Source: an uncultured delta proteobacterium
GTDB taxonomy: Bacteria; Desulfobacterota; Binatia; UBA9968
Direction: 5' to 3'
Length of the DNA: 64,000 bases
Assembly: GCA_963801935.1 (NCBI GenBank)
Contig: CAWDHA010000011.1
Span: 25,923 to 89,922, forward strand
Shown: positions 3,474-51,600 of the stretch, one piece after another
How positions within the stretch are numbered: position 1 is the first letter of the stretch
Layout of the letters: every line of letters starts with the position of its first letter
The notes under the pieces: model-generated
Database searches by the model: none
What the model saw: only the letters and a program-made list of their open reading frames with translations
What the model was told of the DNA's origin: nothing
Made by a program: the position numbers and the translations under genes

Positions 3474-3631
3474 GCGAAATAGGCGTTCACGAACTCTGCA
3501 CTTATGCCGATTCGTGCTAAGGCCAGCACTAACAATATTCAAAACTATCGACGATGACGCAGGATTGAGTGGCTGGATTTTACTTCATTCTGCCGCTTTC
3601 ATCCTTCTTTTTTTCTAACCACGGAGGCACT

Positions 3632-4795
3632 ATGGCCGGCGCGCTCGATGATGTTCGCGTAATTGATTTCACCCACGCTTTGAATGGGCCGTTCTGTACC
3701 ATGATGCTCGGTCACATGGGCGCGGAGATCATCAAGATCGAGCCGCCGGCGGGCGATGGTTTTCGCCGCTCGTGGATGCCGCCCGGCGCCAAAGTAGACG
3801 CCTATGAGTTCTTATGGATCAACGCTAATAAGAAGAGCGTTGCGCTGAACCTGAAAACCGAGCGCGGCGTCGAGATCGCGCGCCAGCTGATCGACCGCGC
3901 CGACGTGGTGGTAGAAAACTATCACACCGGGACGATGGAAAAATTTGGTCTCGGCTATGACACGCTGAAAGCGATCAATCCCCGGCTGATCTACGCATGC
4001 TCGCGCGGCTTTGGTGAGAGTGGACCATACAAGGATTATGGCAGCACCGCGCAAACCAACAACAGCATGACCGGCTGGACGCACACCGGATGGAGCTACA
4101 GCCGCGCGCCGGGAACCAAAGCTATCGGCATCGGCGACGAGGCCGCAGGCGTCAGCATGGTGTGCGGCATCCTCGCCGCGCTGCACGCGCGCCAACGAAC
4201 CGGCGAGGGACAGCGGATCGTCGTGTCAATGCAAGAGGCGCTACTCGGTTTTATGATCAGCGAGTTTCACGAGCATTTCTCCGGCATTGAAGTCGGCAAC
4301 TATCCTATCCCGGTTGCGGATGGTTACTTCACGCTCCGCGTACCGGATCTCAGCGACAGTGGTTGGGTCAAGCTGACGCGGCTCATGGAACGCGATGACC
4401 TAGCCGATGATGCGCGTTTCGCCAACCCTCAGACGCGCCGCCAGAATCGCTCAGAGCTCCAGGAATTGATCAAAACATGGGCGCGCGGCAAAACACGTCA
4501 CGCGCTTTGGGACGGCTTGAGAAGCATCGACTATTTTGGCGCGCCGGTTCTGTCGATGGGCGAAGTGCTGGAAGATCCGCACATCAAGGAGCGCCAAGCG
4601 TTCATCGAGCGCGATCATCCAAGCGCCGGGCCGACCAAGTTGCTGGCGCCGTGGATCCATATGTCTGAGACGCCGGCAAGCATCCGCGCCGACTCGCCTG
4701 CTCTCGGGCAACACACCGATAAAGTTTTGAGCGAAATTCTGGGCTTGAAAGCTTTTGAGCTGGCGGAACTGCGAATGCAGGGTGTGGTGACATAG
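3632..4795 (+). CDS. CoA-transferase family III (CaiB/BaiF)
   Basis: RBS GGAGG then ATG 3632. DDVRVIDFTHALNGPFCTMMLGHMGAEIIKIEPP is the canonical family-III CoA-transferase N-terminus. Length ~390 aa. Confidence 0.8.
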   Translation: MAGALDDVRVIDFTHALNGPFCTMMLGHMGAEIIKIEPPAGDGFRRSWMPPGAKVDAYEFLWINANKKSVALNLKTERGVEIARQLIDRADVVVENYHTGTMEKFGLGYDTLKAINPRLIYACSRGFGESGPYKDYGSTAQTNNSMTGWTHTGWSYSRAPGTKAIGIGDEAAGVSMVCGILAALHARQRTGEGQRIVVSMQEALLGFMISEFHEHFSGIEVGNYPIPVADGYFTLRVPDLSDSGWVKLTRLMERDDLADDARFANPQTRRQNRSELQELIKTWARGKTRHALWDGLRSIDYFGAPVLSMGEVLEDPHIKERQAFIERDHPSAGPTKLLAPWIHMSETPASIRADSPALGQHTDKVLSEILGLKAFELAELRMQGVVT

Positions 4796-4805
4796 TAGCC
4801 GTGCT

Positions 4806-4890
4806 CCAGTTTCTAGTTTCTGGTTTCAAGTTTCTCGTTTTAATCCAGGCTTCTGTTTTCCTAGAACCAGAGACCTGAAACCAGAAACTG
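4806..4890. terminator. heptad-repeat palindromic hairpin (GTTTC units) between convergent genes
   Basis: cagtttctagtttctggtttcaagtttctcg ... agaaccagagacctgaaaccagaaactgaac. The arms are reverse complements. Lies between the CoA-transferase (+) and LLM oxidoreductase (-) 3' ends. Confidence 0.5.
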
Positions 4891-4892
4891 AA

Positions 4893-5903
4893 CTAATCCG
4901 CCAAAGCTTTGATCAACCGCTCCGCCGACTCCCTGCCGCGGGGAAACGGCGCGACGATAACGCGCGTGCAGCCGGCGCTAAAATAATTATCGAGGGTGCG
5001 CCGGATATCATCACCGTTTCCGGCACCAACGAACGACGTTGCCAAAGGTTCGCTCACCTGTTCTTCAGCGCGCTCGATTTCACCTCGCGCCACTAGATCT
5101 TTTAGAGCGAGAAGCGCATCGCGATATTCCGGACGCTGAGTTTCGATCATGCGGTCCGGGTTGCCACGCAAGCGTTGTATAAAAGTAGCCCGGGCATGGC
5201 CGAGGGCCGTGGCGCGATCCTCGTGGGCGCAACACGTTGCAATGGCCGTCAATTCGAGCCGGTTCGGATCGCGTCCGGCTTTGCGGGCGGCGTCATGAAA
5301 CTGCTGCGCTGAGAAGTTGGCAATGTAGTAAGGCGATACGACGTTGGTCAATAATCCGTCGGCAATTTCGCCCGCCAGGGCCACCATGCGAGGCCGGGTA
5401 GCGCCAATGTAGATCGGCAAATCAAGCCGCGTCCGGCTGAAGCCGAGTTTGCTGTTGACGCCGGAGAAGCAGCGGCCGTCGTGAGTGAATTGCTCGGCGG
5501 TGAGGGCTTTACGCAGGAACCCGACATATTCCCGCAGCCGAGCCATCGGCGCTTCCAGTGGAATGCCATGCGCAAGATCATTCCAGGGATGGTGGCCGAC
5601 GCTCAAACCCAGGCGCACGCGACCCTGAGACAGCTCGTCCAGGGTGGCCGCCGCCATCGCTATCTGGAACGCCGAGCGGGTATAGACGTTGACGATCGCC
5701 GTGCCGACGCCTATCGATTGGGTGACCGTTGCTATGGCGGAGAGCATGGCGATCGAATCCCTGCCGATGTCTTCGTTGAGCCACATGCTTTCGAAGCCGG
5801 CGCTTTCCGCCTGCCGCGCCAGCTCGATAACATCGCGTGCCGACAATTCGCTGCCGTGGCCGTCGTCTTTAAAGTCAATGCCGATGGGCCGTTTTTGCAT
5901 CAT
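4893..5903 (-). CDS. LLM-class (luciferase-like) flavin-dependent oxidoreductase
   Basis: 336 aa. TIM-barrel LLM signatures: ...SMWLNEDIGRDS..., ...LGLSVGHHPW..., ...IYIGATRPRMVALAGEIADG... Confidence 0.7.
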   Translation of the reverse strand: MMQKRPIGIDFKDDGHGSELSARDVIELARQAESAGFESMWLNEDIGRDSIAMLSAIATVTQSIGVGTAIVNVYTRSAFQIAMAAATLDELSQGRVRLGLSVGHHPWNDLAHGIPLEAPMARLREYVGFLRKALTAEQFTHDGRCFSGVNSKLGFSRTRLDLPIYIGATRPRMVALAGEIADGLLTNVVSPYYIANFSAQQFHDAARKAGRDPNRLELTAIATCCAHEDRATALGHARATFIQRLRGNPDRMIETQRPEYRDALLALKDLVARGEIERAEEQVSEPLATSFVGAGNGDDIRRTLDNYFSAGCTRVIVAPFPRGRESAERLIKALAD

Positions 5904-7496: not shown

Positions 7497-8483
7497 TTAA
7501 CTTCTAAAATGCAGTGCATGCGCGGCATTGCCACCGAGAATCAACTCGCGTTCCACTTCCGGCAGGTCCAGTTGCATGACCTTTGCCACCGGCTCGAAGT
7601 CTCCCATAGCCATGGGATAATCCGTGCCGATCACGACTCGGTCCGCACCGACGACTGTAACGAGATACTGCAAAGCCGCGACGGAATGAACAACGGTGTC
7701 GAAATACATTTGATTTAAATACGCCGACGGTTTCTGAGGAACAATCTTTTTTAGCTCTGGCCGCAAGCCGTAGGAGTGATCGAGCCGCCAGATATTGAAT
7801 GCCAGCAGTCCGCCGCCGTGGGATAAGCACAGACGCAAGTTCGGATACTTCTCGAACATCCCCTTCAAGATCATGCGCTCGACCATCAGGGTCGTCCGAA
7901 AAGTGAACTGCAGAACGTTGCCGAGAATCGGTGACAGCGGGTCGTCGGCATCCAGACCACCTTCGAGCGGATGGACAAACAGCAACATGTCTAACTCGTG
8001 AACCGTATCAAAAAAAGCCTCGAACGCCGGATCGTCGAGCGGTTTGTCGCCGACGGCGTTGCCGATCTCCAAACCTTTGAGCCCCATGGCTTTTGCTTCC
8101 CGGGCAATGGCGATGGATTCGCCAACGCTCTGTAGCGGCACGCTGCCGAAACCAACAAAGCGATCGGGATGCTTTTCGACAATTTCTTGAATCGCTTGAT
8201 TCTGCTTGCGCGAAAAGTGCGCGGCCACCGCCGACTCTTCCCAATAGAAAAGCAGAATCGGCGACGGCGAAATGGCTTGCATGTCGATGCCCATCGCATC
8301 GAGCGCTTTGATCCGCGCCGCTGGATCGTACGCGCCGGCGCCGAGCCCGGGTCGATGGCCGATCTGCGAGGTAACCGACAGTTTGCCCTGGTCCAATACT
8401 AACTTTGGCTTACGGTCTTCGTATTTGCCGGGGTTCTGCAAAGCTTCGATGGGGAAAAAATGCGAGTGGAGATCGATGTTCAC
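7497..8483 (-). CDS. amidohydrolase family 2 (ACMSD-like)
   Basis: MNIDLHSHFFP (HxH metal motif), ...VIGTDYPM..., 328 aa. Confidence 0.8.
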   Translation of the reverse strand: MNIDLHSHFFPIEALQNPGKYEDRKPKLVLDQGKLSVTSQIGHRPGLGAGAYDPAARIKALDAMGIDMQAISPSPILLFYWEESAVAAHFSRKQNQAIQEIVEKHPDRFVGFGSVPLQSVGESIAIAREAKAMGLKGLEIGNAVGDKPLDDPAFEAFFDTVHELDMLLFVHPLEGGLDADDPLSPILGNVLQFTFRTTLMVERMILKGMFEKYPNLRLCLSHGGGLLAFNIWRLDHSYGLRPELKKIVPQKPSAYLNQMYFDTVVHSVAALQYLVTVVGADRVVIGTDYPMAMGDFEPVAKVMQLDLPEVERELILGGNAAHALHFRS

Positions 8484-14225: not shown

Positions 14226-15044
14226 ATGAACGCAACATTATTGAAGCGTGGCTGGTTGTTGGTGCTCGTGTTATCGTTAGCGGCTGCATTTGGTAGCGCC
14301 AACGCGCAGCCCGCCAAGCAGTTCGAGCCGCAAGTCGGTCAGGATGGGAAAGACGTGATCTGGGTCCCCACGCCGCAGGCTTTGGTGGATAAGATGCTTG
14401 ATATGGCCAAAGTCTCGCCACAGGACTACGTCATTGATCTCGGTTCCGGCGATGGCCGCACGGTGATCACCGCAGCCAAGCGCGGCTCTAAGGCTCTCGG
14501 CATCGAATACAATCCGGACATGGTCGAGCTATCCAAGCGTGCCGCCGCTAAAGAGGGTATGAGCGACAAGGCGAGTTTCATGAAGGCCGATCTATTCGAG
14601 AGCGATTTTTCCCAGGCGCAAGTGATCACGATGTTTCTGCTCTCGAGCATCAACCTCAAGCTCCGGCCAAAGATCCTCGATCTCAAGCCGGGGACGCGCA
14701 TCGTATCGAACAGCTTCGATATGGCAGAATGGAAGCCGGATGAAACAGCGACTATCCCAAATTGCAATTCGTGGTGCACGGCGCATTTGTGGATTGTGCC
14801 CGCGAAAGTCAACGGCACGTGGAAATTGCCCCAGGGAGAGCTGACCTTAAAACAAACATTTCAGATGATTAATGGCACGCTCAAGTCTGGGAATGAGGTC
14901 GCGCAAGTTACGGGTAAGCTCAATGGAGACGAGATCACCTTTAGCGCCGGCGAGGCGCACTACAGCGGCAAAGTTAACGGCAACTCTATTGCCGGCATCG
15001 TCAAATCCGGCGGCAACTGGAGCGCCACGCGCACAGCGAGCTAG
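14226..15044 (+). CDS. secreted class-I SAM-dependent methyltransferase-fold protein with C-terminal beta-rich extension (paralog 1)
   Basis: RBS GGAGGA. Signal peptide LLVLVLSLAAAFGSANA. MTase motif I VIDLGSGDGRTVITAAKRG and conserved VPTP motif. C-terminal CNSWCTAHLWIVPAKVNGTWKL... extension. Confidence 0.6.
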   Translation: MNATLLKRGWLLVLVLSLAAAFGSANAQPAKQFEPQVGQDGKDVIWVPTPQALVDKMLDMAKVSPQDYVIDLGSGDGRTVITAAKRGSKALGIEYNPDMVELSKRAAAKEGMSDKASFMKADLFESDFSQAQVITMFLLSSINLKLRPKILDLKPGTRIVSNSFDMAEWKPDETATIPNCNSWCTAHLWIVPAKVNGTWKLPQGELTLKQTFQMINGTLKSGNEVAQVTGKLNGDEITFSAGEAHYSGKVNGNSIAGIVKSGGNWSATRTAS

Positions 15045-15168
15045 GATAGTGCCTCATGACCGCTTAGCTTGAATGTCGGTTCTGAGCGGCACCCTGTGTG
15101 AAAACTCCGCGCGACTTAGACGATTCACCAAGAGCGGGAGAGAAATTACAAGCATTGGAGGAGCCATC

Positions 15169-15969
15169 GTGGTTAAAAACATTTTCTTAGCACTCTGGTT
15201 TGTCGTCGCCATTGCCGGCGGTATCGCTCAGGGACAATCGAGTAAAGATTTCCAGCCAGAGGTTGGGCAAGCGGGCAAGGACGTCGTCTGGGTCCCTACA
15301 CCACAAGAGTTGGTTGACAAGATGTTGGACATGGCGAAGCTCACGCCCAAGGATTACATCATCGATCTCGGTTCCGGCGATGGGCGCACCGTAATCACCG
15401 CAGCCAAGCGCGGCTCCAAAGCCCTAGGCATCGAGTACAATCCGGACATGGTCGAGCTAGCCAAGCGTGCCGCCGCCAAGGAAGGCGTGAGCGACAAGGC
15501 GAGTTTCATGAAGGCCGATCTTTTCGAGAGCGATTTCTCTCAGGCGCAGGTGATCACGATGTTTCTTTTGCCGAGTATCAATATAAAATTGCGGCCAAAG
15601 ATTCTCGACATGAGACCCGGGACGCGAGTCGTCTCGAATTCGTTCGATATGGAAGATTGGAAACCGGACGAAACCGCAAACGTCGAAGGGTGCAGCAACT
15701 GGTGCACGGCGCATCTGTGGATTGTGCCGGCGAAAGTGAACGGCACGTGGAAGCTGCCGCAGGGAGAGCTGACAATTAAACAAACATTTCAGATGATCAC
15801 CGGCACCTTGAAAAACGGCAACACTTCGAGCCCGATCAACGGCAAGCTCAACGGCGATCAAATCGCCTTCAGCGCCGGCAATACCCAGTACAGCGGCCGC
15901 GTGGCCGGGAACTCAATGGAAGGCAGTGCCGGCGCCAGCCAATGGAGCGCGAAGCGGGCGGGTAAGTAG
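15169..15969 (+). CDS. secreted class-I SAM-MTase-fold protein (paralog 2, tandem)
   Basis: GTG 15169 is preceded by GGAGGA. Signal peptide FLALWFVVAIAGGIAQG. IIDLGSGDGRTVITAAKRG. ~75% identical to paralog 1 including the C-terminal extension. Confidence 0.6.
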   Translation: MVKNIFLALWFVVAIAGGIAQGQSSKDFQPEVGQAGKDVVWVPTPQELVDKMLDMAKLTPKDYIIDLGSGDGRTVITAAKRGSKALGIEYNPDMVELAKRAAAKEGVSDKASFMKADLFESDFSQAQVITMFLLPSINIKLRPKILDMRPGTRVVSNSFDMEDWKPDETANVEGCSNWCTAHLWIVPAKVNGTWKLPQGELTIKQTFQMITGTLKNGNTSSPINGKLNGDQIAFSAGNTQYSGRVAGNSMEGSAGASQWSAKRAGK

Positions 15970-16571: not shown

Positions 16572-17705
16572 TTACGCGCCCAAGCTGTAAGCTTTCGTCG
16601 GGTTATCCCAGAGAATCTTGGTGCGCGAGGCGCGCGAAATCTTGTCATTGCCGCTGATTGCGCCGACGGTTTTATCCGGAAATTTGTCGATCGCATCGCT
16701 GTGCGGGTAATCGGTGGCGATCATGAGATAATCATCACCGATATGGTCGATGAATACCGGCGCCAGTTCTTCGCCCGCTTCGCAGCTTATCCAACAGTTG
16801 CGTTTGAAATAGTAGCTCGGCTTTTCTTTGGTAATCTTGGCCGACCCGTGGGATTCGTGCTCCCAGTGCTCATCCATGCGTTCTAGCCAAAACGGCGCCC
16901 AACCGCAGCCCGATTCGAGGTGCGCGACTTTGAGTTTGGGAAATCTCTCGAGCACGCCGTCGCCGCAAAAATTTAAGCAAGCCAGCATCTGCTCCAGCGG
17001 ATGGCAGGCCACATGCCGGCCGAATTCACTGTAGCGATCGGAGCCCGCCTGCTGTAGAACGGTGCGCGCGCCCTCGTGAACGCAGATGGTAACGCCGAGG
17101 CCCGAGCAGACGTCGTAAATCGGATCGTAATCCGGACTTGCGAAGGTGCGGCCACACAGTTTGTTCGGCCGCCAGAAAATTCCTACCAAGCCCAACTTCT
17201 CGCGCGCATATTTAAGCTCTTCGACGGCGCGCGCCGGATCCTGCAGCGGCAACAGCATGACGCCGTAGAGACGTTTGCGATCGTGGTCGCAATAGTCCGC
17301 CAGCCAGGTATTGTAGGCGCGGCAAATCGCCGCGCTTAACTCAGGATCGATATCGTCACGCCACATGATATAGAGGCCCATCGTCGGGAAGAGCACGGAG
17401 ACGTCGATGCCTTCGCGCTCCATGTCGCGCAGGTTGGATGCCGGGTCGAACTTGTTGGCGTAAGCATCGGCGAAGCACTCGCGCCAGCGCTCCGAGGATG
17501 AAAAAATGTATCCATAGTCTACCGTCTCCCGGCCGGGCCGTTGAGCGGAGTCGGAGACCGGTTTGCCGTCGACTTCGCGCACGGTCTGGTTCGGTCCGGC
17601 CAGATGCACCCGGTGTCTGAATTTCTCGGGTAAATATTTTTGATACAGATCGCTGGGCTCGAGAATATGCCGGTCGGCATCGATGACTTTAAATCCGTCC
17701 CTCAT
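16572..17705 (-). CDS. amidohydrolase family 2 (ACMSD-like)
   Basis: Start MRDGFKVIDADRHILEP at 17705 with GGAGG RBS. ...ATDYPHSD... C-terminal motif. The ORF-track start at 17930 is unlikely. Confidence 0.75.
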   Translation of the reverse strand: MRDGFKVIDADRHILEPSDLYQKYLPEKFRHRVHLAGPNQTVREVDGKPVSDSAQRPGRETVDYGYIFSSSERWRECFADAYANKFDPASNLRDMEREGIDVSVLFPTMGLYIMWRDDIDPELSAAICRAYNTWLADYCDHDRKRLYGVMLLPLQDPARAVEELKYAREKLGLVGIFWRPNKLCGRTFASPDYDPIYDVCSGLGVTICVHEGARTVLQQAGSDRYSEFGRHVACHPLEQMLACLNFCGDGVLERFPKLKVAHLESGCGWAPFWLERMDEHWEHESHGSAKITKEKPSYYFKRNCWISCEAGEELAPVFIDHIGDDYLMIATDYPHSDAIDKFPDKTVGAISGNDKISRASRTKILWDNPTKAYSLGA

Positions 17706-17805
17706 AGTGCTTCCTCCATTTTGATCGTTGGCTTGGCCGTTTATAGAATAATGGGATTTGAAATTTAAGAGCTCGAGGCGCAGAAGCGCTCGGCCCCCTT
17801 TCCGT

Positions 17806-18831
17806 TCAGACTCCGCCGAATCCTTCATCCTGCGCTTCGGCCAACAACCATGGATCTCTAATCTCCGTGGTTGGCCCTTTACCGGCAAGTACATTGACGA
17901 CTTCGCGAGCCGCGTGGGTTTGACAGTCAATATAGGACTGATCGGAATTGGCCGCAGTGTGGCAGGTGACGATTACGTTAGGCAAAGTCAGCAGTTTGTG
18001 ATCCGCCGGCAAAGGTTCCGGCTCGGTAACGTCGAGGGCGGCACCGGCAAGCTCGCCGGCGACCAGGGCGTCATATAACGCGTCCGAGTCAACCAAACCG
18101 CCGCGCGCGCAGTTGATAAGATAAGCGGTGTTCTTCATCGCTTTGAACTGCGCCGTGCTGAACATTTTTCTCGTCTGCTTGGTGAGCGGCGCGTGCAGGC
18201 TGATAAAATCGGAAGTTTTGACCAGTTCATCAAAAGTTACCATTTTTACGCCCATGCCCTCGGCGACTTTTGGCTCCAGGTACGGATCGTAGGTCTGGAC
18301 ATTCAGCCTCATACCCTGGGCGCGCGGCGCCACCTGCTTGCCGACGTGGCCCAGGCCGACAATGCCCATGGTGCGCCCTTCGATGCGGTAGACACGGCCA
18401 CGGTAGGTATGGAGCTCGGCTGTGTGACGGCGCCATTTACCATCGTGCACGTACTGGTTCATGCGCACGAGCTTGCGCGAAATGGCAATGAGTAAACCGA
18501 TCGCTTGTTCGGATACCTCGATGGAGTTGCAGCCCGCGGCGTTGCAGATGATCATGCCATGATCCTTGGCGGCCTTGAGATCCATGCGATCGACGCCGAC
18601 GCCGGTACGACAGACGACCTTGACGCGCTTCAACTGAGAAATGATTTCGCGCGTGAGCGGCACCGAACCGTGCATGATGATGCCGTCGGCGTCTTTGCCC
18701 ATTTCAACCACGTCGGCGTCAGTGGTGGGGCGCCGGATCGTCAAGTCTGCGTCGATCTCCGCCACGATCGGCTTGATGAGATCGACCGGAACATCGTTGC
18801 TGCCGAAATAGACGACGTGAAACTTGCCCAT
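17806..18831 (-). CDS. D-isomer-specific 2-hydroxyacid dehydrogenase (PGDH/glycerate DH family)
   Basis: GIVGLGHVGKQVA (NAD-binding GxGxxG). ...YLINCARGGLVD... and ...VTCHTAANS..., catalytic R/E/H signatures. Confidence 0.8.
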   Translation of the reverse strand: MGKFHVVYFGSNDVPVDLIKPIVAEIDADLTIRRPTTDADVVEMGKDADGIIMHGSVPLTREIISQLKRVKVVCRTGVGVDRMDLKAAKDHGMIICNAAGCNSIEVSEQAIGLLIAISRKLVRMNQYVHDGKWRRHTAELHTYRGRVYRIEGRTMGIVGLGHVGKQVAPRAQGMRLNVQTYDPYLEPKVAEGMGVKMVTFDELVKTSDFISLHAPLTKQTRKMFSTAQFKAMKNTAYLINCARGGLVDSDALYDALVAGELAGAALDVTEPEPLPADHKLLTLPNVIVTCHTAANSDQSYIDCQTHAAREVVNVLAGKGPTTEIRDPWLLAEAQDEGFGGV

Positions 18832-19160: not shown

Positions 19161-20828
19161 ATGAAAGTACGCCGCGCCCGGCTCACTACGGGTCTGATCT
19201 TACTGACCTATCTCGCGACCCACTTCACGAATCATGCGCTGGGGTTGATTTCCTTGGAGGCGATGGAATGGGGCCGGCGCTGGTTTCTCGCGCTGTGGCG
19301 CAACCCATTGGCAACGACGGCGCTGTATACGTCTTTACTGGTGCATTTTTCGCTTGCGCTCTGGTCGCTTTACCAACGCCGCCACCTGCGCATGCCCGTG
19401 TGGGAGACATTGCAGCTCACCATGGGCCTGGCGATTCCGCCGTTGTTGTCGATCCACTTCGTGGGCACGCGCCTGAGCCACGAATGGTTCGGCGTGGATG
19501 ATACCTACAGTCTGCTGGTACTGACACTCTGGCATGCCTCCCCATGGGACGGTGTGAAGCAGTCGATTTTGATCACCGTCGCATGGCTGCATGGCTGCAT
19601 CGGCTTTCATTTCTGGCTGCGGCTGCGGCCGTGGTATAGCCGCTCGGCGCCCTTTCTCCTGGTTTGCGCATTATTGTTTCCGCTTCTGGGGCTTCTGGGA
19701 TTTTCCCAGGCCGGCCACGAAGTGTCGAACCTGGTGGCGCAGAACCCCGCCTGGATAGAGTCGGTCGTGCGTCAAAGCAAGCTGCCAGCGCCGGGCCAGC
19801 GCCAAGTTCTGTACCGCGTTAACAACGCTGTTATCGCCGTCTTCCTGTCGACCTTGGCACTCACCCTGGTCGCGCGCGCCGCGCGTTATCTTTATGAGAG
19901 CCGCAGCCGGGTACGGATCCGCTATCCCGACGGCCGCGAAGTGCGTGTGCCCCGAGGTTTCACTGTTCTCGAAGCCAGCCGTTTCGCGCGCGTGCCGCAC
20001 GCCTCGGTGTGCGGCGGGCGCGGCCGCTGTTCGACTTGCCGGGTGCGCGTTTTGATTCCGACGTCCGGACTACCGCCGCCAAGCGGCGCCGAACAGCGAG
20101 TTTTGCAACGCGTCGGCGCTCCACCGAATGTGCGACTGGCCTGCCAGCTTCGCCCCAATGCCGACTTGTCGGTGATTCCGCTTTTACCGGCGAATGCCGC
20201 GGCAACCGCCGGCTATGAGCAGCCGGCTTATCTTGCCGGCCAGGAGCGCACCATCGCCGTGTTGTTTGCCGACTTACGTACCTTCACCGGTATCGCCGAA
20301 CAGAAATTGCCCTATGATCTGGTGTTTCTCCTGAACAGTTACTTTGCGACAGTCGGAGAGGCAATCACCGCTGCTGGCGGTATCGTCGATAAATTTATCG
20401 GCGATGGCGTCATGGCGCTCTTTGGCGTTAACAACAGCGCTGAAGCCGGTTGCCGGCAAGCGATCGCCGCGGCCCATGCCATGGTTAGAGAAATTGAGGT
20501 TCTAAGCCATAGCCTTGAAGTGGAGCTTCCCGTGCCGCTTAAACTCGGGGTCGGCATCCATAGCGGTCCGGCGGTCGTGGGTCTCATGGGTTATGGCCCG
20601 AGCATTCACCTCACCGCGATCGGCGATACCGTGAACGTCGCCAGCCGGCTCCAAGACTTGACCAAGGAATATAGTTGCTCCCTGGTAATTTCCGAACAAG
20701 TGGCAAACTACGCGAGATTGAACGTGAGCGCGTTGCCGCGGCACGAGATCACCGTGCGAAACCGCCGTGAAGCCCTGACGATTTTCGTCGTGGACGACGT
20801 CGCGAGCGTGGCCGGCAGCGTATCTTAG
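19161..20828 (+). CDS. membrane-anchored 2Fe-2S ferredoxin / class III adenylate-guanylate cyclase fusion
   Basis: N-terminal ~240 aa has 5-6 TM helices with conserved His (HFTNH, HFVGTRLSHEW, WLHGCIGFHFW). Plant-type 2Fe-2S motif CGGRGRCSTCRV...LACQ. Cyclase motifs AVLFADLRTFT...FIGDGVMALFG...NVASRL. Confidence 0.75.
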   Translation: MKVRRARLTTGLILLTYLATHFTNHALGLISLEAMEWGRRWFLALWRNPLATTALYTSLLVHFSLALWSLYQRRHLRMPVWETLQLTMGLAIPPLLSIHFVGTRLSHEWFGVDDTYSLLVLTLWHASPWDGVKQSILITVAWLHGCIGFHFWLRLRPWYSRSAPFLLVCALLFPLLGLLGFSQAGHEVSNLVAQNPAWIESVVRQSKLPAPGQRQVLYRVNNAVIAVFLSTLALTLVARAARYLYESRSRVRIRYPDGREVRVPRGFTVLEASRFARVPHASVCGGRGRCSTCRVRVLIPTSGLPPPSGAEQRVLQRVGAPPNVRLACQLRPNADLSVIPLLPANAAATAGYEQPAYLAGQERTIAVLFADLRTFTGIAEQKLPYDLVFLLNSYFATVGEAITAAGGIVDKFIGDGVMALFGVNNSAEAGCRQAIAAAHAMVREIEVLSHSLEVELPVPLKLGVGIHSGPAVVGLMGYGPSIHLTAIGDTVNVASRLQDLTKEYSCSLVISEQVANYARLNVSALPRHEITVRNRREALTIFVVDDVASVAGSVS

Positions 20829-23028: not shown

Positions 23029-23325
23029 GGTTCATTCCCCTGCGATTGGCAGCGCTGGTTATCGACCTCAGACCGAACCGGCGCGTCCGCATTATAGCCA
23101 AAGTGAAATTTTTATGTCGAGAGGCCGGCGCCGGAAAGATTGTCGCCTAAGGCGCAAGCCTTCACTGTTGGCCGCCGCAGATCTCTAAGCCGCGCATCGA
23201 GCGCATGTTGCGCTTCGTCAAAGAAACGGTGTGAATCGGCAGGCTTGGCGCTTGCTTCAGCGCTCAAGGGCGGATAGAAAACTTCTTAACGGTTGAACAG
23301 AAGGCCGCGGGAGGGAAATACAATA

Positions 23326-23919
23326 ATGACCATTGTGAAAGGCTACTCGATGATAGCGCAAACGAAAAGAATTCTCTTGGCGTTGTTCGTGGCGACCGCC
23401 GCTTCCCAGGCTCAAGTCCAAGCCCAGGAAACGATTCCTTTTGTGCCTTCGCCGATGCCGGTGGTGTTGCGCATGCTCGAAGTGGCGGAGTTCAAGAAGG
23501 GCGATGTGCTTTACGACATGGGCAGCGGCGACGGCCGTATCGTTATCAATGCTGCGAAAAAGTACGGCGTGCGCGGCGTCGGTGTGGACCTCAACCCGGA
23601 ATTAGTGGAAAAGGCAAAAGCCAATGCGGCGCAGGAAGGCGTTAGCCATCTGGTCGAGTTTCGCGCCGCCGACGGCCTGACCGTCGATATTTCCGAAGCT
23701 ACCGTGGTGACGCTTTACATGTTCAAGTGGTTCAATAACCAGCTCCGTCCCAAACTGCAAAAACTCAAGCCCGGCTCGCGCGTGATTGCTCACGATTTCG
23801 ACATCGATGACTGGAAACCGACCCGGGTCGAATATGTGAGCCCGAATGAATCAGCTTCCGAATTCAGCGAACCGCGCACGCTCTTTATCTGGAATATTGA
23901 AACGCCTGCGGCGCCGTAA
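23326..23919 (+). CDS. secreted class-I SAM-MTase-fold protein (paralog 3, lacks the C-terminal extension)
   Basis: RBS GGGAGGG. Signal peptide ALFVATAASQAQVQA. FVPSPMPVV...VLYDMGSGDGRIVINAAKKYG. Confidence 0.6.
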   Translation: MTIVKGYSMIAQTKRILLALFVATAASQAQVQAQETIPFVPSPMPVVLRMLEVAEFKKGDVLYDMGSGDGRIVINAAKKYGVRGVGVDLNPELVEKAKANAAQEGVSHLVEFRAADGLTVDISEATVVTLYMFKWFNNQLRPKLQKLKPGSRVIAHDFDIDDWKPTRVEYVSPNESASEFSEPRTLFIWNIETPAAP

Positions 23920-25258: not shown

Positions 25259-26476
25259 ATGCCCACGCGCAGCACACAAAGTCATTGGCTTTTTATCACG
25301 TTGGCTGCCGCGGCGGTGCTGATGGTAACCATGGGAGCGCGGCAATCGCTCGGGTTGTTCGTTTTCCCGATCAACGACTCCACCGGACTCGGGCTTGTGA
25401 CGATCAGTTTCGCGCTCGCGTTCGGACAGTTTATCTGGGGCGCGATCCAACCGCTCGCCGGCGCTGTCGCAGACCGCTACGGGCCGGACGAGTGCTGGTA
25501 GGCGGTTTGCTTTTTCTCGCTTAGGAAGCGCATTGACGCCGTTTCTCACTTCGGGATTGGGCCTGGTGATCGCCATCGGTATCTTATCGGTGATCGGCTC
25601 CGGCGCGGCGAGCTTCTCAGTGTTGATCGGCGCGGTCGCGCAGAGGGTCGCCGCAGCGCAGCGCGGCAGCGCCGCGGGCGTTATCAACGCCGGCGGTTCC
25701 TTCGGACAGTTCGTCTTTGCGCCGCTGTTGCAAAAACTGATCTCGCTTTTCGGCTGGACGGGCGCTATGGGGTCGCTGGCGTTGATCGCATCGGCGACGC
25801 TGCCGTTGGCGCGCCCGCTGCGCCGCGCGCCGGGTGACCAAACATCGAGCACCGCGACCTCCGCCGCGGATAGTTTGCGCACCGCGGTGCGCCGCGCGCT
25901 TTCAGACCGGAGTTACCTTTTACTCCACGCCGGCTTTTTTACCTGCGGCTTTCACGTCGCTTTCGTTGTCACACATTTGCCGGGCGAAGTGAGTTTGCAT
26001 GGCCTGGCACTTCATGTGGCGAGTTGGTCGCTGGCGATCATTGGCGCTGGGAATATCTACGGCAGCCTCGCCGCGGGCTGGTGCGTCAATCGCTACCGCG
26101 GCAAGTATGTCTTGTCCTGCGTATACGGATCGCCAGCGCCCTTGGTGTTGCTCTATCTGCCAGCGCCGAAGAGTGAGTGGACCTTTTATCTCTTCGCCGT
26201 CGGCCTCGGTTTTCCTGGCTTGCAACCATTCCGCCGACCGCAGGTGTGATCGGCAAGTTCTACGGCCCGCGTTATCTCGCGACCCTGTTCGGCTTGACGT
26301 TGCTCTCGCACCAGACGGGTGGTTTTCTCGGCGCATGGCTAGGCGGCATCGCGGTGGTGCACTACGGTGATTATCTGCTGATGTGGTACGCGGATGTGTT
26401 GCTCGCGGCGGTGGCGATGCTGTGCAATTTCCCGATTCGCGAGCCGCTGGCGCAGCCGGCAGCGGTATCGGCCTAA
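25259..26476 (+). pseudogene. MFS transporter (OFA/YbfB-like) split into 3 frames by two frameshifts
   Basis: ORFs 25259..25501, 25533..26249 and 26177..26476 together reconstitute a 12-TM MFS protein. Breaks are near 25495 and 26230. Confidence 0.5.
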
Positions 26477-48313: not shown

Positions 48314-50610
48314 ATGGAATACAGCCCGAGCCATTCCCGAATCAATCGCATCGCTTTCATCGGCAACTACCTGCCGCGCCAATGCGGCATCGCCACGTTC
48401 ACCACCGACTTGTGCGAAGCCATCGCCGCCGAGCACCGCGACACGACCTGCATCGCCGTGCCGGTCAACGATATCGAAGACGGCTACGCCTATCCCCAGC
48501 GTGTGCGCTTCGAGCTGACCGAGAAAGATCATCGAGTCCTATCGGCGCGCCGCCGATTTCTTGAATATCAACAGCGTCGATCTCGTGTGCCTGCAGTTCG
48601 AATACGGCATCTTCGGCGGCCGGGCGGGCAGCCATATCCTGGCGCTGCTGCGCGATCTGCGCATGCCCATCGTCACGACCCTGCACACGATTCTGCGCGA
48701 ACCCGACGCGCATCAGCGCCGGGTTTTGGAAGAAGTCGCCGGCGTTGTCGGATCGCCTGGTGGTCATGAGCAAGCGCGGCGCGGAATTTCTCGAGGAGAT
48801 TTATCACGTAGCGCCGGACGAAGATCGATCTGATTCCGCACGGCATTCCCGACATGCCTTTCGTCGATCCGAGTTTTCACAAAGACCTGTTCGGCGTCGA
48901 AGGCAAAATCGTCTTGCTCAGCTTCGGCTTGCTGTCGGCGAACAAGGGACATCGAGAATGTCATTGCCGCTCTGCCTGCGATCTTGGCCAAACATCCGAA
49001 CGTGGTGTACTTCATCGTCGGCGCGACTCATCCGCATGTCCTGCGGCACGACGGCGAAACCTATCGCTTGTCACTGCAGTGGCTGGCCCAAGAGAAAGGC
49101 GTCGAAGGTCAAGTGATCTTCTACAACCGATTTGTCAGTTTGGAAGAACTCGTTGAGTTCATCGGCGCCGCGGATATTTACATCACGCCTTATCTCAACC
49201 CGGCGCAGATCGTCTCGGGCACGCTGGCCTATACCGTGGGCGCCGGCAAGGCGGTTATTTCGACCCCCTATTGGTATGCCGAAGAGATGCTGGCCGACGA
49301 ACGCGGCGCGCTGGTGCCGTTTCGCGATCCGGCGGCGTTGGCCGAGCAAGTGATCGACTTGTTGGACAACGAGGCCAAGCGCCACGGCATGCGCAAGCGC
49401 GCCTATCTGTACGGCCGCGAGATGATCTGGCCGCAGGTCGCGCGTCGCTACATGGAGAGTTTTCAACGCGCCCGCGCCGAACGGCGCCACTTCACTCCTC
49501 CCGGTTTCGTGGTCAAAGCGCTCGATAAACGTCCGGCCGAATTGCCGCCGCTCGAAACTCGATCACTTACGCCGCATGACCGACGATACCGGCATGTTTC
49601 AGCACGCGATTTTCACCGTGCCCAACTATCACGAGGGTTACACCATCGACGACAATGCCCGCGCGCTGATCGTGAGCACGCTGTTGGAAGAACTGGGCAA
49701 TGAAGAGACCGCCGATCTAATCTCACGCTATTTCGCTTTCGTCTGGTATGCCTTCAATGCGAAGACCGGACGCTTTCGCAATTTCATGAACTACCAGCGC
49801 AACTGGCTGGAAGAGAGCGGCTCCGACGACAGCCACGGCCGCACCTTGTGGGCGCTGGGCACGGTGTTGGGCCGCTCCAACACGCCGGCGCTGCAGAGTA
49901 TGGCCGGCTGGGTATTCGAGAAAGCGTTGCCGGCGATTCTCGAGACGACCAGCCCACGGGCCTGGGCGTTCGCGCTGATCGGCATCGACGAGTATCTGCA
50001 GCGTTTTGCCGGTGACCGAAGAGTCACTCAGGCGCGCGAGGAATTGGCCGGGCGGCTGCTCGAGTTGTATCGCAAAAATCGAACCGATGAGTGGCACTGG
50101 TATGAAGAGTCGCTGACCTACTGCAACGCCGCGCTGCCGCACGCCTTGCTGATGTGCGGTCACGGCGATGCCCAACAACGACATGACCGAAGCCGGCCTG
50201 GAGTCGCTCCAATGGCTGGCCGATCTGCAGCGCGCTGACGACCAGCGGCGGTCATTTCGTGCCCATCGGCTCCAACGGTTTTTATCAGCGCGGCGGCGAG
50301 CGTGCGCGCTTCGATCAGCAGCCGGTGGAGGCTCAAGCCATGGTGTCGGCTTGCCTCGAAGCACATCGGATCACGGGAGATCAAGAGCTGGCACAAAGAA
50401 GCGCGGCGCGCCTTCGACTGGTTCCTCGGCCGCAACGATCTGAACCTGCCGATCTACGATCCGACGACCGGCGGTTGTCGCGACGGCTTGCATCCCGACC
50501 GCCCGAACGAAAATCAGGGCGCGGAGTCTTCCCTCGCCTTTCTCCAGGCGGTGCTCGAACTGCGTTTGGCTGAGACAACATTGGCATCCGTGGAAACAGG
50601 AGCTCGATGA
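48314..50610 (+). pseudogene. GT4 glycosyltransferase fused to an (alpha/alpha)6-type glycoside-hydrolase-like domain, fragmented over >=7 frames
   Basis: Pieces: 48314..48769 (IAFIGNYLPRQCGIATFT), 48561..48833, 48745..49116, 48984..49703 (GT-B C-terminal half ...FIGAADIYITPYLNPAQIVSGTLAYTVGAGKAVISTPYWYAEE...), 49576..50238, 50259..50573, 50302..50610. Read together they give one ~760-aa protein. Confidence 0.5.
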
Positions 50611-51600
50611 CCAACCAACATCACCGAACTTTTTCGCCGTCATAAAACCAATCCGATCTTGAGCGCGGCCGATTGGCCCTATCCGATCAATAGCGTTTTC
50701 AACCCCGGCGCCACGTTGCTTGCCGGATGGCACGACTCTGCTCTTGTGCCGCGTCGAGGATCGCCGCGGCCATTCTCACCTGACTGTCGCTCGTTCCGAC
50801 CAACGGCGTGGATAATTGGCAGATCGAATCTCGGCCAACGTTGCCGGCCGACCCGGAACATTTCCCGGAAGAATTATGGGGCATCGAAGATCCGCGCATT
50901 ACCTACGTCCCGGAATTGAGCAAGTATGCCGTCGTCTATACCGCTTTCACGCGCGACGGCCCGGGCGTGTCTCTGGCGCTCACTGAAGATTTTCACAACT
51001 TCGAGCGCTATGGCGTCATCATGCCGCCGGAAGATAAGGATGCGGCTTTGCTTCCCCGTCGTATTCAACGGGCAGTGGGCTTTGATCCATCGGCCCGTCA
51101 GCGCTCCGCGCGCGCACATGTGGATGTCTTACTCTCCGGACCTGCGCCACTGGGGCAATCACAAGCTGATGCTGGAAGCACGCCGCGGCGCATGGTGGGA
51201 TGCCAATAAAATCGGTCTCTCGCCGCCGCCCATCGAAACCCCGCAGGGGTGGCTGGTGATTTACCATGGCGTGCGCCATACCGCCGCGGGCTCGATTTAC
51301 CGATTGGGACTTGCTCTGTTTGATTTGCACGCGCCGGAGCATTGCTTGAAGCGCGGCGACGAGTGGATTTTCGGCCCGCAAGAAACCTACGAGCAGCGCG
51401 GCGACGTCGACAACGTGGTTTTTCCTTGCGGCTACACGATTGCGCCGGACGGCGACACCATTCACCTGTATTACGGCGCGGCGGATACGAGCATCGGCCT
51501 GGCGACAGGAAGCGTGCGCGCCATGCTCGAGTGGCTTGAGCCTGCATGGCAGGGAACCGGCAAGAAGTATCAACAATTAAGGAGGGTTTATGGCAGCTGA
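50607..51600 (+). pseudogene. GH130-family glycoside phosphorylase/hydrolase (DUF377 beta-propeller), 2-3 frameshifts
   Basis: ATGA overlap with the upstream gene. AGGAG RBS. WGIEDPRITYV (GH130 catalytic-Asp motif) and ...WLVIYHGV.... A shift at a GG run is near 50730. Confidence 0.55.

Follow-up and report, generated by a model that had tools for sequence, protein, structure and literature searches.

What does a bacterial nucleotide cyclase respond to when a histidine-rich membrane domain and an iron–sulphur domain precede its catalytic domain in a single polypeptide? This question is raised by one gene in a stretch of 64,000 nucleotides (the window, hereafter) of contig CAWDHA010000011.1 from an uncultured delta proteobacterium (assembly GCA_963801935.1; Binatia, lineage UBA9968). 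From the letters and open reading frames (ORFs) of the window, the original prediction had proposed a polytopic anchor with potential haem ligands, a plant-type 2Fe-2S ferredoxin and a complete class III cyclase domain, implying that cyclic nucleotide signalling is coupled to redox state or electron transport. Our analyses indicate that the product is very probably a redox-regulated class IIIb adenylate cyclase of the CyaC type, anchored in the membrane and acting as a homodimer. We place the gene in the CyaC family, whose architecture has been known since 2016 (Beltz et al. 2016, eLife 5:e13098; PMC4821796) and of which one member, Sinorhizobium meliloti CyaC (SMc01818), has been characterised experimentally (Wissig et al. 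2019, Mol Microbiol 112:16, as reported in PMC10463352 and PMC9552081). The domain layout of the window protein is given in Table 1.

The ORF is a genuine gene rather than a chance ORF, because 7,960 database proteins match its product and the best 120 of them are 69%–100% identical to it, nearly all over the full length. These 120 proteins carry the same two Pfam domains as the window protein, namely Fer2 (PF00111) at amino acids (aa) 257–332 with E = 3e-7 and Guanylate_cyc (PF00211) at aa 362–542 with E = 4e-17, each scoring above the curated Pfam cut-off. After the preceding stop, the reading frame offers no earlier start than the ATG at 19161, and it closes at 20828. The window protein and a Binatia homologue with 83% identity have the N-terminal MKVRR...TGL start in common.

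Membrane anchor and its conserved histidines

The anchor belongs to a large protein family. A phmmer search with aa 1–250 as the query against 1.84 billion representatives (E ≤ 1e-3) yielded 2,165 clusters at 50% identity, and conservation was read in 45 full-length representatives with 37%–56% identity. An AlphaFold2 (AF2) model of the anchor alone was of high quality (predicted local distance difference test score, pLDDT, 95.7; predicted template modelling score, pTM, 0.90) and predicted six transmembrane (TM) helices (aa 2–29, 49–72, 80–110, 128–153, 159–194 and 211–246) with three short connecting helices (aa 32–46, 116–126 and 197–206). The polytopic nature of the domain was thus as originally described, and the earlier count of five to six helices can be refined to six. 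Because the positively charged loops read from the sequence (N-terminal MKVRRAR, 73–79 RRHLRMP, 154–158 RLRPW and C-terminal ARAARY...RSRVR) obey the positive-inside rule, the ferredoxin and cyclase domains are predicted to be cytoplasmic, as are the N-terminus and the loops at aa 73–79 and 154–158.

Several histidines in the motifs HFTNH (aa 21–25), HFVGTRLSHEW (aa 99–109) and WLHGCIGFHFW (aa 142–152), all of which were located, had been described as invariant-looking. Among the 45 representatives, this description held for H21 (0.98), H99 (1.0) and H144 (0.98) and also applied to H62 (1.0), which had not been named. H25 (0.89) and H150 (0.76) were partly conserved; H107 in the SHEW segment was not conserved, and neither were H75, H125 and H186.

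The four conserved histidines acquire a specific meaning from a comparison with FrdC, subunit C of the Wolinella succinogenes quinol:fumarate reductase (QFR; PDB 1QLA/2BS2-4, Pfam PF01127). In a Foldseek search of the anchor against the PDB, FrdC (2bs4_C) was the best match, with a TM-score of 0.56/0.55 and a probability of 0.96 over 220 columns, and it was the sole match with a TM-score > 0.3, all others being ≤ 0.29. An hhalign comparison of the anchor family profile with a FrdC profile built from 34 aligned members (query sequence identical to 1qlb_C) gave a probability of 75.9% and an E-value of 2.3e-5 over 175 columns, and paired H21, H62, H99 and H144 exactly with H44, H93, H143 and H182 of FrdC. 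Against the single FrdC sequence, the hhalign probability was 2%. The relationship is therefore remote and becomes visible only with a profile on both sides and a fold search.

In the crystal structure of the Wolinella enzyme, the distal haem is reportedly ligated axially by H44 and H143 and the proximal haem by H93 and H182. Because the histidines of the anchor align with these ligands, the distal (periplasmic-side) haem should be held by H21 and H99 and the proximal (cytoplasmic-side) haem by H62 and H144, which agrees with the depth of the histidines in helices 1–4 and with a cytoplasmic ferredoxin. The earlier idea of a haem-ligating anchor is thereby strengthened as a prediction, both by the position of the four histidines on the FrdC ligands and by the FrdC-like fold. 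Over the first five TM helices, both proteins have a common fold, and the four axial histidines lie on anchor helices 1, 2, 3 and 4, which correspond to tmI, II, IV and V of FrdC. Also conserved are Q85 of the window protein (Q129 in FrdC) and, around the fourth ligand, the motif HG(C/S)(I/V)G. In contrast, the sixth helix of the anchor, which brings the chain back to the cytoplasm, has no FrdC counterpart, and the anchor continues into a ferredoxin and a cyclase within one chain instead of being accompanied by FrdA and FrdB; no frdA- or frdB-like gene was found among the scanned neighbours in the window. The anchor is thus distantly homologous to FrdC, a di-haem cytochrome b, and has been recruited as a sensor; it does not serve as a QFR subunit.

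Ferredoxin and cyclase domains

The candidate cluster ligands of the ferredoxin domain are C284, C290, C293 and C328, the first three of which belong to the CGGRGRCSTC motif (aa 284–293) quoted in the original prediction. Each was 98% conserved, and in alignments all four fall on the cluster-binding cysteines of ferredoxins with known structures. The closest solved relatives were Novosphingobium Arx (3lxf), a Rhodopseudomonas palustris ferredoxin (3hui), adrenodoxin homologues, putidaredoxin, the iron–sulphur cluster (ISC) ferredoxin and NqrF; NCBIfam gave weak partial matches only, such as that to the ferredoxin part of NqrF. The spacing CX5CX2CX34C and these relatives point to a [2Fe-2S] domain of the vertebrate-type (adrenodoxin/putidaredoxin-like) subgroup of the beta-grasp Fer2 superfamily. 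The ferredoxin fold proposed earlier is thus retained at the superfamily level (PF00111), whereas the plant-type label is not, the plant-type spacing being CX4CX2CX29C. The linker that follows was poorly conserved and had pLDDT values of 41–61 in the full-length model, and neither a coiled coil nor a cyclase-transducer helix was predicted in it.

The catalytic domain is complete in its key residues, in line with the original prediction. The motifs FADLRTFT (aa 369–376), FIGDGVMALFG (aa 412–422) and NVASRL (aa 492–497) were all located, and the full class III set is present, comprising the metal ligands D371 and D415, the substrate residues K411 and T485 and the transition-state residues N492 and R496. 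The best PDB matches were class IIIb adenylate cyclases, namely Spirulina CyaC (1wc0, E = 4.5e-21), the photoactivated cyclases OaPAC and bPAC and Pseudomonas aeruginosa CyaB (3r5g). In the alignment to 1wc0, K411 lies within VDKF(I/V)GD and T485 within (L/F)TAIG. A Lys–Thr pair, with Thr where class IIIa has Asp, is reportedly the signature of class IIIb adenylate cyclases, and the ferredoxin-linked cluster of cyclases has been assigned to class IIIb (Beltz et al. 2016; PMC4821796). Because the class IIIb pair occurs with a complete catalytic set in one chain, the enzyme should be homodimeric and its predicted product is cyclic adenosine monophosphate (cAMP) rather than cyclic guanosine monophosphate (cGMP). 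Reading Lys411 and Thr485 as specificity residues, as had been proposed as a check, thus favours cAMP, a choice that the original prediction had left undecided.

Substrate specificity might nonetheless vary within the family. The position of K411 is occupied by Gln in 14 and by Ser in 4 of the 45 representatives, and in six of these Gln/Ser sequences the catalytic set reads DQDTHR, His having replaced the transition-state Asn; the substrate specificity or activity of this subgroup may be altered. In addition, the window protein has K461 at the usual position of the phosphate-binding Arg, where Arg was found in 31 and Lys in 7 of the 45 representatives. Both observations would suit a catalytic domain that makes cGMP or another product, or that is inactive. 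For the window protein itself this is scarcely credible, since it has the canonical Lys411 and Thr485 together with all metal and transition-state residues, and the same residues are described as necessary for the adenylate cyclase activity of S. meliloti CyaC (PMC10463352).

Proposed redox control and its alternatives

How the three modules may work together is suggested by CyaC. According to the accounts in PMC10463352 and PMC9552081, the six-TM domain of the S. meliloti enzyme binds two haem B, the scheme includes a [2Fe-2S]2+ cluster and the haems are oxidised or reduced by ubiquinone, altering cyclase activity, with oxidation by quinones activating the cyclase. The redox-coupled signalling envisaged in the original prediction has, in the same accounts, been shown experimentally for that enzyme, and by analogy we infer a similar mode of control for the window protein. 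Its FrdC-like anchor would hold two haem b stacked across the membrane, with the adrenodoxin-type [2Fe-2S] domain beside the proximal haem and the catalytic domain following that domain. The respiratory quinone/quinol pool would set the redox state of the haems and probably also that of the cluster, which may serve as a relay from the proximal haem to the catalytic dimer. The oxidised state would turn cAMP synthesis on and the reduced state would turn it off, and in this way the cell would turn respiratory-chain redox state into a cAMP signal.

A related-locus scan with one genome per species gave at least 584 confirmed relatives. Among those listed, the closest was a metagenome-assembled genome (MAG) of Candidatus Binatia (83% identity), followed by MAGs labelled “uncultured delta proteobacterium” (65%–74%), and many Alphaproteobacteria were found at approximately 47%–56% identity. 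Family members also occurred in MAGs labelled Binatia, Chloroflexota and Verrucomicrobiia. Copies on rhizobial plasmids or chromids (Rhizobium etli p42e and Sinorhizobium sp. B11) had approximately 50% identity over 97% of the length and retained all 14 key residues.

Some relatives consist of the anchor and the Fer2 domain without a cyclase (Table 1). These genuine stand-alone proteins are 347–382 aa long, are encoded on contigs of up to 236 kb and keep all four histidines and all four cysteines. The anchor–ferredoxin unit is therefore an independent module, because proteins lacking the cyclase retain all eight ligands. H25 and H150 were replaced by Leu, Tyr or Phe in five of the six stand-alone proteins checked, with P0346 keeping both. 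Most entries that appeared to have only the TM and Fer2 parts, or an odd C-terminus, were rejected as artefacts, being contig-end fragments or frameshifted cyclases. The frameshifted genes (Table 1) were recognised by out-of-frame tails rich in Arg, Pro and Ala or by overlap with a Guanylate_cyc match in another ORF. The tail of P0205 is cyclase-like but degenerate, and P0257 has an unrelated tail of approximately 190 aa of no recognised type. In P0164 (531 aa) and P0146 (468 aa), a partial anchor appears to be joined to either an AMP-binding enzyme or a methyltransferase of class I; such fusions may be real or may be artefacts of gene calling or assembly.

Among the alphaproteobacterial family members, the cyclase gene adjoins one that encodes a secreted tetratricopeptide repeat (TPR) protein of approximately 157 aa (28 of 80 related loci; Table 1). 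In its C-terminal part, the TPR protein carries the conserved motif C-x(2-3)-C-E, and it might act as a redox partner in the periplasm. No homologue was found in the window.

The retention of all eight ligands in cyclase-less proteins, together with a secreted neighbour whose conserved Cys pair could mark a periplasmic redox partner, would suit a module that is mainly an electron-transfer enzyme, conducting electrons across the membrane from quinol to an acceptor or from periplasm to cytoplasm, in which case the cyclase would only report flux or the sensitivity of the cluster to O2, NO or reactive oxygen species would be the true signal. However, CyaC is described as having quinone-controlled cyclase activity and not substrate turnover (PMC10463352, PMC9552081), the window shows neither an FAD/NAD domain nor any other acceptor fused to the protein or encoded beside it, and the TPR neighbour is absent from the window; we consider an electron-transfer role improbable.

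Haem-regulated, gas-sensing nucleotide cyclases are well known, and two further, semi-conserved histidines (H25 and H150) are close to the haem ligands, so the haems could in principle sense O2, NO or CO in the manner of FixL or soluble guanylate cyclase instead of forming a quinone-coupled relay. A gas sensor is nevertheless very unlikely here. The four invariant histidines match the bis-His, six-coordinate haems of FrdC, which have no open coordination site, H25 and H150 are lost in most of the stand-alone relatives checked, and CyaC is reported to be quinone-responsive in the accounts cited above.

Several points weigh against the assignment of the window protein as a quinone-controlled enzyme of the CyaC type. 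The link to CyaC rests on architecture, residue numbering and published descriptions, not on direct alignment. The CyaC partners Clr (Crp), CycR (TetR) and LysR were not found in the scanned ORFs of the window, and the host appears to be a Binatia-like uncultured bacterium. The linker is unstructured in the full-length model, which would leave the route of the signal from the ferredoxin to the cyclase unclear. In the hhalign comparison, E66 and E180 of the FrdC quinol site and E-pathway are replaced by L43 and W142 in the window anchor; therefore, a quinone site, if present, cannot be the same as in the Wolinella QFR. With these glutamates absent and the cyaC-linked regulators not found nearby, the anchor and [2Fe-2S] domain might instead form an autonomous transmembrane redox module that, in the Binatia-type lineage, reads a non-ubiquinone signal (for example menaquinone or a periplasmic redox partner). 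Oxidative or nitrosative damage to the cluster could then be a second input, and the enzyme would integrate two redox signals. We regard this as an unlikely alternative.

The remaining points concern the anchor. The window protein was unmatched by Pfam Sdh_cyt (PF01127) at E ≤ 1, and a scan of individual family members matched this model in only 2 of 26 (best E = 0.39). An HMMER profile of 26 family members found only a spurious designed coiled coil in the PDB, and the E-value of the Foldseek match to FrdC was 1.2, which is not significant. With no Pfam or NCBIfam match on aa 1–246 either, these results would be expected if the N-terminal domain were a cofactor-free anchor that resembles FrdC as a generic helical bundle. 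Such an anchor is highly improbable, however, given that the four histidines are invariant in a family of this size (as read in the 45 representatives), that each of them falls on one FrdC ligand in the hhalign comparison (E = 2.3e-5), that FrdC stands apart from all other PDB entries in fold similarity and that haem binding was shown for S. meliloti CyaC as described in PMC10463352 and PMC9552081. We therefore retain a CyaC-type, redox-regulated adenylate cyclase as the most probable identity of the window protein.

Genomic neighbourhood and relation to known systems

The cyclase gene lies between two D-2-hydroxyacid dehydrogenase genes, both of which were confirmed as originally described. 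The upstream dehydrogenase and the adjacent amidohydrolase recur only in the nearest loci (L001–L007 and L026). A functional tie of the cyclase to the flanking dehydrogenases or the amidohydrolase was rejected, since the synteny is confined to the closest relatives, and this neighbourhood is lineage synteny and not a functional link. Upstream of the cyclase gene, neither a clear Shine–Dalgarno sequence nor a plus-strand sigma-70 promoter was found. Terminator-like matches lay inside coding sequence and are probably due to chance, and the window had no Rfam match.

The amidohydrolase had been called a remnant. It matched the whole Pfam Amidohydro_2 model (positions 1–288 of 289) and looks intact, not obviously a remnant. 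Its true start is probably near 17705. Over approximately 376 aa it has 73%–75% identity to the orthologues in L002–L007, and the long ORF overlaps the 2-hydroxyacid dehydrogenase gene only through an upstream in-frame TTG. Compared with window positions 16572–18831, the order of amidohydrolase and dehydrogenase is swapped in L002, L003, L005, L006 and L007 (approximately 3500–5800), where the amidohydrolase directly adjoins the cyclase.

Elsewhere in the window, a second Amidohydro_2 gene and three paralogous S-adenosylmethionine (SAM)-dependent methyltransferase genes, two of them in tandem, were found (Table 1). The three methyltransferases have N-terminal segments resembling signal peptides and weak DOT1-like matches; secreted or periplasmic methyltransferases are unusual. 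Three further ORFs matched only part of a Pfam model and may be frameshifted or truncated genes, or their true start may have been missed in the mechanical ORF list.

TABLE 1 Coordinates of the cyclase gene and its domains, of genes at related loci and of other genes in the window
Feature	Position	Strand	Basis or remark
Probable CyaC-type adenylate cyclase gene, complete	19161..20828	+	Uninterrupted ORF; equal-length homologues at up to 90% identity; 555 aa, 61.0 kDa, pI 9.7
Six-TM anchor, predicted di-haem cytochrome b-like, aa 1–246	19161..19898	+	AF2, Foldseek, hhalign, His conservation
[2Fe-2S] ferredoxin domain, aa ~250–340	19908..20180	+	PF00111; Cys alignment and conservation
Linker, aa ~341–360	20181..20240	+	Low pLDDT, little conservation
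Cyclase homology domain, predicted class IIIb, aa ~361–555	20241..20825	+	PF00211; PDB matches; residue table
Rhizobial copy L083	CP091033.1 391416–393131		Sinorhizobium sp. B11 p1
Rhizobial copy L084	NC_007765.1 63098–64810		R. etli CFN42 p42e
Secreted TPR protein gene	L009 3165–3704; L015 7663–8133; L044 6547–7020; L081 7726–8199 (all four on the − strand)		~24 further loci
Stand-alone anchor + Fer2 proteins	P0253 (L082 6001–7137); P0367; P0346; P0385; P0363; P0352
Frameshifted cyclase genes	P0341 (L081 6001–7715); P0135; P0185; P0217; P0260
Amidohydrolase	16572–17930	−	Amidohydro_2
Second Amidohydro_2 gene	7497–8483	−
Paralogous SAM-dependent methyltransferases	14226–15044; 15073–15969; 23293–23919	+
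Partial match, MFS_1	25533–26249	+	Model positions 82–307 of 347
Partial match, Glycos_transf_1	48984–49703	+	Model positions 44–170 of 172
Partial match, GH130	50926–51600	+	Model positions 155–319 of 320

The rhizobial copies have a conserved neighbourhood of their own. Upstream and divergently oriented are genes for a polysaccharide deacetylase and for a glycosyltransferase of family 4, and downstream lies an FkbM methyltransferase gene whose start overlaps the cyclase stop. These loci were rejected as the published cyaC locus (LysR, cyaC, cycR), since neither a LysR nor a TetR gene was present and the glycosyltransferase and methyltransferase genes adjoin the cyclase instead.

Among solved cyclases, Spirulina CyaC (1wc0), bPAC and OaPAC and P. 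aeruginosa CyaB (3r5g) are alike in the catalytic domain (E of approximately 5e-21), including the Lys/Thr pair and the full residue set. Their input modules differ, being BLUF, GAF/PAS or MASE domains in those enzymes and a predicted di-haem anchor with a ferredoxin in the window protein.

Cluster 1 of Beltz et al. (2016; PMC4821796) is closer in architecture. It comprises class IIIb cyclases in which a ferredoxin separates the anchor from the catalytic domain; the anchors were noted to resemble the cytochrome b of fumarate reductase/succinate dehydrogenase, with four spaced histidines and two predicted haems. This description fits the window protein, with its six-TM anchor, four intramembrane histidines, interposed ferredoxin and predicted class IIIb domain. 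The similarity to FrdC noted there was not detectable in our simple sequence searches and needed profile–profile and fold comparison. Cluster 1 contained 30 sequences from alpha- and beta-proteobacteria (e.g., Rhodopseudomonas palustris Q132R4), whereas the anchor family found here had 2,165 clusters at 50% identity. The CyaC mechanism is thus not confined to rhizobia but belongs to a large family that extends well beyond the alpha- and beta-proteobacteria of the first description, of which a single member has been studied so far. For the window, the outcome is a sound functional annotation and no discovery, as the functional idea of the original prediction was correct but already published. 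The ligand map and the confident anchor model provide ready targets for mutagenesis (H21/H99, H62/H144, the four cysteines and the six catalytic residues).

The nearest characterised system is S. meliloti CyaC, which has the same three modules, namely an FrdC-like anchor with six TM helices, followed by a [2Fe-2S] domain and then by a cyclase domain of class III. The genetic settings differ, in that S. meliloti cyaC has a LysR gene upstream and a TetR gene (cycR) downstream, whereas the window gene has neither and lies between two 2-hydroxyacid dehydrogenase genes in a Binatia-type host lineage. The proteins are similar in size (64.0 kDa for His6-CyaC and 61.0 kDa for the window protein). The CyaC residues that were mutated and are described as necessary for adenylate cyclase activity, K410/T484 and N491/R495 (PMC10463352), correspond to K411/T485 and N492/R496 of the window protein, with the same spacing of 74, 7 and 4 residues and a constant offset of one. 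CyaC and the window protein are therefore colinear over approximately 490 residues.

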